DNA of 32,000 nt from Candidatus Baldrarchaeota archaeon. GTDB taxonomy: Archaea > Asgardarchaeota > Baldrarchaeia > Baldrarchaeales > DXJG01. Shown in pieces: positions 19,532-24,169 of the stretch. The notes below the pieces were generated by a model. It searched no databases. It worked only from the letters and a program-made list of their open reading frames with translations, and was not told where the DNA came from. The translations under genes and the position numbers were made by a program. The stretch's first letter is position 1. Each line of letters opens with the position of its first letter. Where the stretch lies: the NCBI GenBank assembly GCA_019056805.1, contig DXJG01000009.1, positions 186,015 to 218,014 of the forward strand. Direction: 5' to 3'.

Positions 19532-19635
19532 GGGCCCGTGGCCTAGCTGGATATGGCGCCGGCCTGCGGATAAAATTTTAAAATGACTTAGTAGAAAGCC
19601 GGAGATCCCGGGTTCAAATCCCGGCGGGCCCGCCA
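19532..19635 (+). tRNA. tRNA-Arg(GCG) with a 27-nt intron at position 37/38 (19570-19596) and encoded CCA
   Basis: Acceptor GGGCCCG/CGGGCCC, anticodon stem CCGGC/GCCGG, loop CT-GCG-G, T arm CCGGG TTCAAAT CCCGG. BHB central helix CTGC/GTAG with bulges GGA and AAA. Confidence 0.95.
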
Positions 19636-21828: not shown

Positions 21829-23017
21829 ATGACACAAAAAACAACAGTTTCAATAATAAAGGCAGACATAGGTTCACTAGCAGGACACCATGTAGTACAT
21901 CCAGAACTAATTGAACTTGCCAAAAAGGAACTCGAACACGCCAAAAAAGAAGGAATCATAAAAGACTACTACGTATTTAACTGTGGAGACGACCTACAAC
22001 TACTAATGACGCACGACAAAGGAGAAGGAAATTCACAAGTCCACGAACTTGCATGGAACACATTCAAAAAAGCAGCAGAAAAAGCAAGAGAAATGAAACT
22101 CTACGGCGCAGGGCAAGACTTACTAAAAGAAGCATTCTCAGGAAACATACGAGGCATGGGACCAGGAGTAGCAGAACTAGAATTCGAAGAAAGAAAATCA
22201 GACCCAATCCTAGTATTCGCAGCAGATAAAACAGAACCAGGAGCATTCAACCTACCACTATTCAAAGTATTCGCAGACCCCTTCAACACCCCAGGACTCG
22301 TAATAGACCCAAACATGCACGGACCAGACCTAGAACACACAGGATTCAAATTCAAAATACTTGACGTAATAGAAGGAAGAAGCGTAGTCTTAAAAGCACC
22401 AGAAGAAATCTACGACATTCTCGCATTAATAGGTACAACAGGGCACTATGTAATCGAAAAAATATGGAGATACGACGATCTACCAGCAGCATCAGTATCC
22501 ATAACAAGACTAAGCTTGATAGCAGGAAAATATGTGGGCAAACTAGCAGCTATAATGGCTGCTAGGCCTAAAGATGACCCAGTTGCTATCGTACGTGCGC
22601 AACACGGTCTTCCAGCCGTAGGCGAAGTACTCGAAGCTTTTTCATTTCCACACGCCGTCGCAGGTTGGATGCGTGGTAGCCACTACGGGCCCCTAATGCC
22701 TGTAGGATTAAAAGATGCTCGATGCACCAGATTCGACGGCCCCCCAAGAATCGTATGTCTAGGATTCCAAGTATGCAATGGCCATCTAATTGGTCCTTCA
22801 GATATGTTTGACGATCCAGCATTTGACAGAACCAGAATGCTTGCCAACGAAATTGCCGAATATTTCAGAAGACATGGACTCTTCATGCCCCACAGACTCG
22901 GTCCAGATGGGAGAAGAACAATAACAGAATTAAACATGTTCTTCTCCCAGGACTCACGAAATGGAATATACAACGCTACCTCAGGTGCTAGAGAAACTCA
23001 GAGAACGATTCAAGTAA
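21829..23017 (+). CDS. fbp: Fructose-1,6-bisphosphate aldolase/phosphatase (class V); join(21829..22541,22572..22906,22956..23017), 369 aa after removing two introns
   Basis: KADIGS..GHH, GDD, YGAGQDLL, DKTEPGAFN, GWMRGSH and RFDGPP. After splicing, YVGKDDP and HRLGPDEMEYTTLPQVL are restored; stop TAA at 23015-23017. Confidence 0.93.
22542..22571 (+). other. Putative BHB-type mRNA intron 1 of fbp (30 nt, in frame, relaxed motif)
   Basis: GGGC-AA^A-CTAGCAGC-tataatg-GCTGCTAG-GCCT-AA^A. Removal converts YVGK-LAAIMAARPK-DDP to canonical YVGKDDP. Confidence 0.82.
22907..22955 (+). other. Putative BHB mRNA intron 2 of fbp (49 nt, frameshifting, strict BHB)
   Basis: TCG-GTCC-AG^A-TGGGAGAAGAACA-(16 nt)-TGTTCTTCTCCCA-GGAC-TC^A-CGA. 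Removal restores the frame and the conserved C-terminus. Confidence 0.9.
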
Positions 23018-23018
23018 A

Positions 23019-23038
23019 CCATTTTCCTTTTATTTTTC
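23019..23038 (+). terminator. Pyrimidine-rich archaeal terminator candidate for fbp
   Basis: CCATTTTCCTTTTATTTTTC directly follows the spliced-frame stop at 23017. Confidence 0.45.
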
Positions 23039-23107
23039 AATAACTTTACAATACTCTAATTTAATTTTTTATTTTCCCAAGATACTCAATTCCAGAAAAA
23101 TATAAAT

Positions 23108-24169
23108 CTAAAAAATAGCATCGATGAGATTTAAAATAAATGTAGGAGGAACAGTGAGATAAAAATAATTTTCGTTAAATACCGATTTAAATAAAATCTC
23201 TGATTCTAATAGTTCTTCTACACATTCATTAAGCATATATTTTGCTATTTCGTCCCTTATTTCATCGCATAATAAATAATACAAATCTCTTAATTCTTTA
23301 AAAGATAAGTATGCCTTTTTAGGTCTTCTTGAGAGATGCAACGCCATTTTTTCCAGTAAAAGAACGCTTTGCATGTTCATATTTCTTAAAGCTTCCAATA
23401 TCACAAGATCATCATTTAATATCCAAAGTAAGTCATGAGAACATTTTCTAACGTCTTCAACGGTTATTTCCATTCCAGAAGCCGCAAACGGATAAAGCCT
23501 TCTTAATATTTCAATAGATACACTCGGTCTATTAATGTCAAACTCGCAAACTAAATCCGTAATGTACCTAATCACATCTATATCAATTTCTATAGGAAAC
23601 GCTAACTTTACACGTTGCAAAGTTATATCAAAAAGCTGACGAGGCGTATAGATTCCAAGTTTCAAAATGAAATCTAAACGATTTTCTAAATTAGAGAAAC
23701 TTTTTCTTGAAAGAGTTCCGGCATCAGCTGATGCTAAAACAATTATATTCCTTTTTTTACTCTCTCTTAAAACTTTACGAAATAAACTGGAATACAGATC
23801 AACATCATCTAGCACTAATACTAGGAAAAGATCCTTATACTTCTCATTACTTATACATTCAACTTCGTTTCCAATGAAAGAAAACTTTCTTCCACCTATA
23901 ATATTATTTAAAAATTTCTTATTTTCAGAATCATGCATATTGACAAAAACTTTAGGGAATCCATAAGCATCCTTTATTTTCTCCCCTAAATAGTTCACGA
24001 AAGCGGTTTTACCTATACCATTAATACCAGTAACCACAATGTGCAAGGGGTATTGATGGCTTATTCCATCTTCTACGAATGTTTCTGCTACTTTGAGTTC
24101 CTTTTCCCTATGTAATAATTCTGGTGGGATAAAGAAAGGGTCAAAAATTGCAGCTGGGCCGATATTCAA
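23108..24169 (-). CDS. cdc6: Cdc6/Orc1-like AAA+ ATPase (divergent)
   Basis: IPPELLHREKEL, Walker A GINGIGKT, Walker B VLDDVD, YTPRQLFDITLQR and a winged-helix-like C-terminus; GGTGA SD before the TTG start. Confidence 0.75.
   Translation of the reverse strand: MNIGPAAIFDPFFIPPELLHREKELKVAETFVEDGISHQYPLHIVVTGINGIGKTAFVNYLGEKIKDAYGFPKVFVNMHDSENKKFLNNIIGGRKFSFIGNEVECISNEKYKDLFLVLVLDDVDLYSSLFRKVLRESKKRNIIVLASADAGTLSRKSFSNLENRLDFILKLGIYTPRQLFDITLQRVKLAFPIEIDIDVIRYITDLVCEFDINRPSVSIEILRRLYPFAASGMEITVEDVRKCSHDLLWILNDDLVILEALRNMNMQSVLLLEKMALHLSRRPKKAYLSFKELRDLYYLLCDEIRDEIAKYMLNECVEELLESEILFKSVFNENYFYLTVPPTFILNLIDAIF

Follow-up and report, generated by a model that had tools for sequence, protein, structure and literature searches.

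In a 32,000-nucleotide (nt) stretch of DNA from a Candidatus Baldrarchaeota archaeon (Asgardarchaeota; contig DXJG01000009.1, positions 186,015 to 218,014 of the forward strand; hereafter the window, whose own numbering is used throughout), the gene fbp, which encodes FBPA/P, the aldolase/phosphatase of fructose 1,6-bisphosphate (FBP), is interrupted close to its 3' end by 49 nt at positions 22907-22955. We propose, with a probability of roughly 85%, that this insert is an archaeal bulge-helix-bulge (BHB) intron in the coding sequence of fbp, which would be excised from the pre-mRNA by the tRNA-splicing machinery. The actual cleavage and ligation we infer from the motif itself, its fit to an insert that is defined by homology, a conserved RNA structure, selection, and the enzymes encoded in the genome. 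A shorter candidate intron lies upstream in the same gene, and the features concerned, in order along the window, are as follows.

21829-22541, plus strand: fbp exon 1, from the PF01950 match and alignment; its last codon is the Schiff-base lysine of YVGK
22542-22571, plus strand: predicted intron 1 (in frame, 30 nt), folding as a relaxed BHB; central helix GGGC/GCCU, both bulges AAA, intron stem of 8-10 bp, outer helix almost absent
22572-22906, plus strand: fbp exon 2, whose last 9 nt (TCGGTCCAG) are the exon half of the BHB
22898-22959, plus strand: canonical hBHBh' motif with an outer helix of 3 bp, a central helix of 4 bp, bulges AGA/TCA and an intron helix of 13 bp
22907-22955, plus strand: predicted intron 2, 49 nt, frameshifting; cuts between AG and A and between TC and A, on which the BHB rule and a motif-free scan agree
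22956-23017, plus strand: fbp exon 3, coding for (D)EMEYTTLPQVLEKLRERFK and a TAA stop at 23015-23017
23018-23050, plus strand: T-rich tract 3' of the spliced-frame stop, with T-runs read from the sequence; it looks like an archaeal terminator

Predicted excision of the insert and the C-terminus of the enzyme

Without splicing, the open reading frame (ORF) at 21829-23043 (plus strand) encodes 404 amino acids and matches PF01950 (FBP aldolase/phosphatase, class V FBPase) with E = 8e-164. This match covers positions 1-342 of 361 and ends exactly at the insert, past which the ORF continues into an unrelated tail up to 23043. Excision of 22907-22955 joins CCAG to ACGAAATG, and the spliced frame then reads (GP)DEMEYTTLPQVLEKLRERFK before it reaches the TAA at 23015-23017. 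The spliced tail, EMEYTTLPQVLEKLRERFK, equals the consensus C-terminus of the family, and intron-less homologues end in GP[DE]EMEYTTLPQVLEKLKDRF. Of the 120 best homologues, 111 carry the E-x-EYTT motif; it is missing from the intron-bearing genes, from a fragment, and from four sequences that have EVEYTG instead.

The effect of excision was scored with a profile of length 367 built from 115 intron-less homologues. The unspliced product reached 643.9 bits (positions 2-346 of 367), and removal of intron 2 raised the score by 39 bits to 682.9 (positions 2-364). With both introns removed, which yields an mRNA of 369 codons, the score was 698.2 bits, the removal of intron 1 adding 15 bits. We also scanned excisions with no reference to any motif, allowing every start from 22885 to 22934 and every length from 0 to 79 nt, and among the 2142 distinct products the excision predicted by the BHB ranked first. 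A preliminary description of this DNA had called the insert a 49-nt frameshifting intron, with an unspliced frame running into a junk tail and a spliced frame ending in EMEYTTLPQVLEKLRERFK and TAA ahead of T-runs, and had described EYTT as conserved in FBPA/P; all of this is borne out. It had further suggested aligning the two alternative C-termini to class V FBPase, where the unspliced form indeed leaves the family profile at 342 of 361 and excision extends the match to the C-terminus, and the excision boundaries that it drew from the motif are the ones that the scan prefers.

The C-terminal EYTT loop of FBPA/P closes the active site. Its tyrosine corresponds in an alignment to Tyr347 of ST0318 (index 348 in chain 3R1M_A). 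This residue is reported to matter for both activities of ST0318, and a Y347T variant to be without FBP phosphatase activity (PMC8740755, which repeats the assay of the 2011 structure paper). The unspliced product is without the EYTT tyrosine, and fbp is a single-copy gene in this genome. Because both of these hold, there are good grounds to consider that the enzyme would require splicing to be active and that its unspliced form would be inactive.

The same gene carries one further peculiarity, a six-residue insert, GPDLEH (window 22318-22335), that follows a conserved MH. The intron-less Baldrarchaeia orthologue has GPDLES at this point and other Asgard homologues have no insert there; it is probably a genuine protein insertion.

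Structure, relatives and selection

The motif around intron 2 is built from an outer helix in which TCG (22898-22900) pairs with CGA (22957-22959), a central helix in which GTCC (22901-22904) pairs with GGAC (22950-22953), the two bulges AGA (22905-22907) and TCA (22954-22956), and a perfect 13-bp intron stem (22908-22920 with 22937-22949) that is closed by a loop of 16 nt. These are the helices, bulges, stem and loop of the preliminary description, each of them found in its place. The BHB cutting rule, cleavage after the second base of each 3-nt bulge, gives the boundaries of the intron. The minimum-energy structure from RNAfold was the BHB, at -28.4 kcal/mol (z = -5.0), and none of 200 shuffled sequences did as well. 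When the 1.92-Mb genome was scanned for BHB geometry, intron 2 was the single best match and the sole one with at least 20 Watson-Crick pairs and no G-U pair; at this stringency there was none in a mirror-image control layout, which keeps the hairpin content and has the wrong topology.

Other identities for the hairpin were considered and rejected. A self-splicing group I or group II intron is contradicted by the lack of a covariance-model match and by the length of 49 nt, which is far too short; more generally, no Rfam family, group I and II introns included, matched at E <= 1 within 22300-23200. A repeated mobile hairpin, similar to a miniature inverted-repeat transposable element, is likewise contradicted, as a blastn-short search of the genome returned the insert's own locus alone; by the same method no donor copies of intron 1 or intron 2 were found elsewhere in the genome. 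A census of BHB matches by the ORFs that they would fuse was dropped, since, as gene junctions mimic fused ORFs, the fusion rate was that of random positions.

For a view across relatives, loci were gathered from contigs of close relatives, from two genomes of species in the same genus, and by a pattern scan of metagenome and genome collections. A protein search had found three close relatives (P0001-P0003) that share the frameshifted tail, and an 80%-identical Baldrarchaeia protein without it. Intron 2 occupies the same codon in 14 loci of one genus, as nine distinct variants of 49, 43, 37 or 34 nt. Among 400 Asgard genomes, fbp was found in 164, and a match ending at profile position 342 occurred in the window's genus only (G000, G001 and G003); a further genome of that genus with 82% completeness (G002) gave no fbp match. 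A genome of the same order (G004), identical here to the Baldrarchaeia record, has no insert and reads CCAG followed directly by AAGAG. Intron 2 is missing from the sister genus and from all other Asgard fbp genes searched, and the simplest reading is a gain in the ancestor of the window's genus. Split fbp genes in five other Asgard genomes were examined as possible introns and discarded, the splits being contig ends or a plain frameshift.

In public records this genus is labelled Baldrarchaeota (Yap30.bin4.67) and Odinarchaeota (AUK032). The public protein predictions P0001-P0003 and P0062 have a frameshifted or truncated C-terminus. Gene callers mis-annotate genes that are split by introns, and such introns lie behind wrong database entries.

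An artefact of assembly or sequencing is excluded by the presence of the insert, in four length variants, in independent assemblies from ENA, JGI and NCBI, and we give this explanation practically no weight. Contigs of four DNA runs confirm the DNA sequence of the region; among them, intron 2 is covered only in a run of the source's own study. A second run of that study has the stretch unchanged. An intron-less DNA form did not appear in the contigs of the four runs, whose coverage of intron 2 comes from that study only.

The nine variants reveal what has been kept. The loop of intron 2 differs freely between variants, in sequence as in length, and the helices persist: the central helix and the bulges (GTCC/GGAC, AGA/TCA) are retained in all nine, with one G-U pair, the outer helix TCG/CGA has 3 bp, and the inner helix has 11-13 bp. 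Across the variants 99.4% of helix cells are paired, compared with about 50% if each partner is shifted by 1-3 columns. All seven one-sided helix changes turn a Watson-Crick pair into G-U, and one double change, from C:G to U:A, is compensatory. G-U pairs form only in RNA of the sense strand. In the exon half of the BHB (CTC GGT CCA, and GAC) none of the four synonymous sites is variable, compared with 29 of the 40 preceding third positions. Downstream, codon differences in exon 3 divide into 106 synonymous and 21 non-synonymous when read in the spliced frame, and into 0 and 120 when read in the unspliced frame, which argues that exon 3 is translated in the spliced frame. By these counts it is under purifying selection in the spliced frame and not in the unspliced one.

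Several observations weigh against the intron that we propose. With up to two G-U pairs allowed, the genome scan gave three matches in the mirror control and one in the real layout, and below the best match BHB-shaped folds are no more frequent genome-wide than in the control. Because BHB folds are no commoner than this control, structure alone is not decisive, and because there is no excess except for the best match, the genome-wide motif count is unfit as a census; the case for intron 2 rests on position and comparative data. Covariation is statistically weak, as the helices scarcely change: the observed score is reached by 82 of 500 shuffles. Among the RNA runs searched for one that carries the fbp gene, none was listed. 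Finally, all four length classes equal 1 modulo 3, which is unexplained, as splicing needs no such thing, and no variant of the nine has an in-frame stop inside the intron, though the loops hold out-of-frame stops. Given at least three independent indels, the chance of the length pattern is about 1 in 27. Together, the lengths and the open frame hint that the unspliced frame might be seen by selection; the length pattern itself is likely a coincidence, because the fbp intron of a Freyarchaeota-labelled genus (described below) is also 1 modulo 3 in length and yet has an in-frame stop.

The open frame is also what might suggest a truncated working enzyme or an early pseudogene, in which a hairpin was inserted, the 404-residue product is used, and translation no longer reaches the old coding sequence of the C-terminus. 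The unspliced ORF runs through the insert in every variant, all lengths keep the downstream frame, and the lack of a listed RNA run with the gene would suit this explanation as well. However, strong purifying selection on exon 3 is confined to the spliced frame, the tails of the unspliced products stop at differing points (382-404 amino acids) and are not conserved, the product would be without the tyrosine whose mutation inactivates ST0318, and fbp is the sole copy in the genome. We regard this explanation as improbable.

Translational recoding could join the two frames without splicing, either by a +1 shift inside the insert or by a 49-nt ribosomal bypass as in phage T4 gene 60. A stable hairpin does sit at the frame change and the gap of about 50 nt is that of gene 60. 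For a bypass, however, the only matched take-off and landing codons, CCA 22902-04 and CCA 22947-49, would carry the ribosome into the third frame, where a stop follows after 11 codons, and the codon in frame with GAA 22958 is CAC, not GAY. A +1 shift would put 11-16 residues that are not conserved adjacent to the catalytic tyrosine. Conserved slippery or hungry-codon motifs are lacking, and neither form of recoding has any need of 3-nt bulges or a 4-bp helix. The failure of the matched-codon comparison agrees with the preliminary description, which had favored splicing over programmed frameshifting; recoding seems to us barely credible.

Other candidate introns and a proposed splicing pathway

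Intron 1 lies between the Schiff-base lysine of YVGK and the DDP aspartates. It occurs only in the window and in one other locus (L001), and at the nine other loci of the genus the sequence is the predicted spliced junction, GGGCAA followed by AGATGAC. Because these nine read the spliced junction exactly, intron 1 was, on this comparison, gained very recently, and sister lineages still have the empty allele. A shift in composition at intron 1 was considered and set aside, since GC content at third codon positions is similar in both exons and the same pattern occurs in intron-less orthologues.

Further candidates lie elsewhere in the genome. In pyrG (G000, contig C9, minus strand) a gap of 35 nt interrupts the Pfam match; a BHB of 32 nt at 155012-155043, with outer, central and inner helices of 4, 4 and 11 bp, fills the gap, and the cutting rule restores pyrG. 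The gene glyA (G000, contig C6, 43039-44122, minus strand) occupies at least two frames and, close to its 5' end, has a GC-rich BHB hairpin of 26 nt. From such motifs we read that several of this genome's genes contain mRNA BHB introns. Within the window, a tRNA gene serves as a positive control for the cutting rule.

19532-19635, plus strand: tRNA-Arg(GCG) gene that encodes its CCA; interrupted at 37/38 by a canonical BHB intron of 27 nt (19570-19596) with bulges GGA and AAA

The intron of this gene fits the same rule as intron 2. ARAGORN recognized only 18 tRNA genes in this 91%-complete genome, 12 of them with introns, and most tRNA genes here are probably too interrupted for recognition. 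The count is consistent with a report that Asgard tRNA genes are heavily interrupted (bioRxiv 10.64898/2026.10.13.758758).

Another Asgard genus, one protein of which is labelled Freyarchaeota, has a different fbp insert of 70 or 73 nt in six of six genomes (L019:2537-2609, and the same site in L024 and L044-L047). It is located after EYT, four codons downstream of the intron 2 site, and can be drawn as a relaxed BHB with a central helix ATAC/GTAG that has one mismatch and an inner helix TGCG/CGCA, in which cuts after AC and after AA restore EYTTLP. The exon 3' of this insert differs mostly at synonymous sites. It has the look of a separate intron gain, in the loop of the enzyme that intron 2 also interrupts.

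These other sites bear on one more explanation for intron 2, in which fbp is a split gene and its last 18 residues (MEYTTLPQVLEKLRERFK) are translated separately from ATG 22961 and complement the truncated enzyme non-covalently. The ATG is in the correct frame, a weak Shine-Dalgarno-like AGGA lies 8 nt upstream of it, inside the BHB, and separate translation would also explain the selection in the spliced frame. The methionine is nevertheless ancestral and not a new start, as EMEYTT is found in most of the 120 homologues. A split gene would also leave unexplained the BHB geometry, the pair-preserving substitutions, the frozen synonymous sites of the 5' exon half, and why the same cutting rule restores pyrG and the second fbp site. 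We find this explanation very improbable and retain splicing of intron 2 as the preferred reading.

The components for splicing are present. The genome encodes two paralogues of the splicing endonuclease EndA (L007:1465-2019 and L008:1474-2010, both on the minus strand) together with the ligase RtcB (contig C9; RtcB in L009). One paralogue of 184 amino acids matches the catalytic halves of EndA models (alpha-like), and the other, of 178 amino acids, also matches beta-subunit models; the pair is probably a broad-specificity (alpha-beta)2 enzyme. We propose that the final 9 bases of exon 2 and the opening 4 of exon 3 would pair mutually and with the 3' end of the intron, thereby building the outer and central helices, and that the intron's own 13-bp hairpin would supply the inner helix. 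EndA, as a probable (alpha-beta)2 enzyme, might then cleave after the second base of each 3-nt bulge, and RtcB could ligate CCAG to ACGAAATG. The spliced mRNA of 369 codons would be translated into a product with the catalytic EYTT tyrosine and the C-terminal helix.

The two fbp introns might additionally act as a post-transcriptional switch on gluconeogenesis, an archaeal counterpart of the frameshifting splicing of HAC1/XBP1. Retention would yield a stable isoform that is without the catalytic tyrosine, or one with a 10-residue insert beside the Schiff-base lysine, and the ratio of spliced to unspliced forms could be set by EndA access, temperature or ribosome traffic. We consider such a regulatory role unlikely.

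Comparison with known systems

According to a 2020 study, cbf5 is the only case of a BHB intron in an archaeal protein-coding gene, to which that study adds one intron in a 5' untranslated region (UTR) of Haloferax (PMC7714728); a 2025 paper on EndA cites the cbf5 work only. Our full-text literature searches turned up no account of BHB introns in protein-coding genes of Asgard archaea.

The closest parallel is the intron that cbf5 pre-mRNA carries in Crenarchaeota (Watanabe 2002; Yoshinari 2006; Yokobori 2009, PMC2738675). It is likewise a short BHB intron inside a gene that codes for protein, for which the mechanism would be the same: it is cut by EndA, restricted to a lineage with both gain and loss, and found in hosts with a hetero-oligomeric EndA, traits in common with the fbp case. 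The two differ in that fbp encodes an enzyme of central metabolism and cbf5 an RNA-modification enzyme, in the phylum (Asgard and Crenarchaeota, respectively), and in that fbp carries two introns, one of them a very recent gain. Splicing has been shown experimentally for cbf5, whereas that of fbp is predicted from sequence. What is new here is thus the gene, the phylum, the occurrence of two introns in one gene and the recent gain of one of them; the mechanism is already known from cbf5.

Archaeal tRNA introns with an hBHBh' motif at 37/38, such as that of tRNA-Arg(GCG) at 19570-19596, have an identical geometry and cutting rule, and the same enzymes presumably act on them. The fbp RNA, in contrast to tRNA, serves as a template for translation, and ribosomes and EndA must therefore be in competition for it. 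The 5' UTR BHB intron of Haloferax volcanii HVO_1309 (PMC7714728) is also an mRNA substrate of the splicing endonuclease; it lies in an untranslated leader and leaves the protein unchanged, whereas the fbp intron breaks the reading frame. In eukaryotes, HAC1/XBP1 splicing by IRE1 and RtcB likewise relies on an endonuclease that acts at paired stem-loops and on an RtcB-type ligase, and a frameshifting excision swaps the C-terminus. The nuclease and its recognition motif differ from those proposed for fbp, and HAC1/XBP1 splicing is a regulated stress switch.

If our reading is correct, the tRNA-splicing machinery can be needed for a core metabolic protein, here the product of the sole gene for an ancestral gluconeogenic enzyme in an Asgard archaeon. 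Taken together with pyrG, glyA and the Freyarchaeota-labelled fbp intron, the fbp introns of the window point to ongoing gain of mRNA introns in the closest prokaryotic relatives of eukaryotes.
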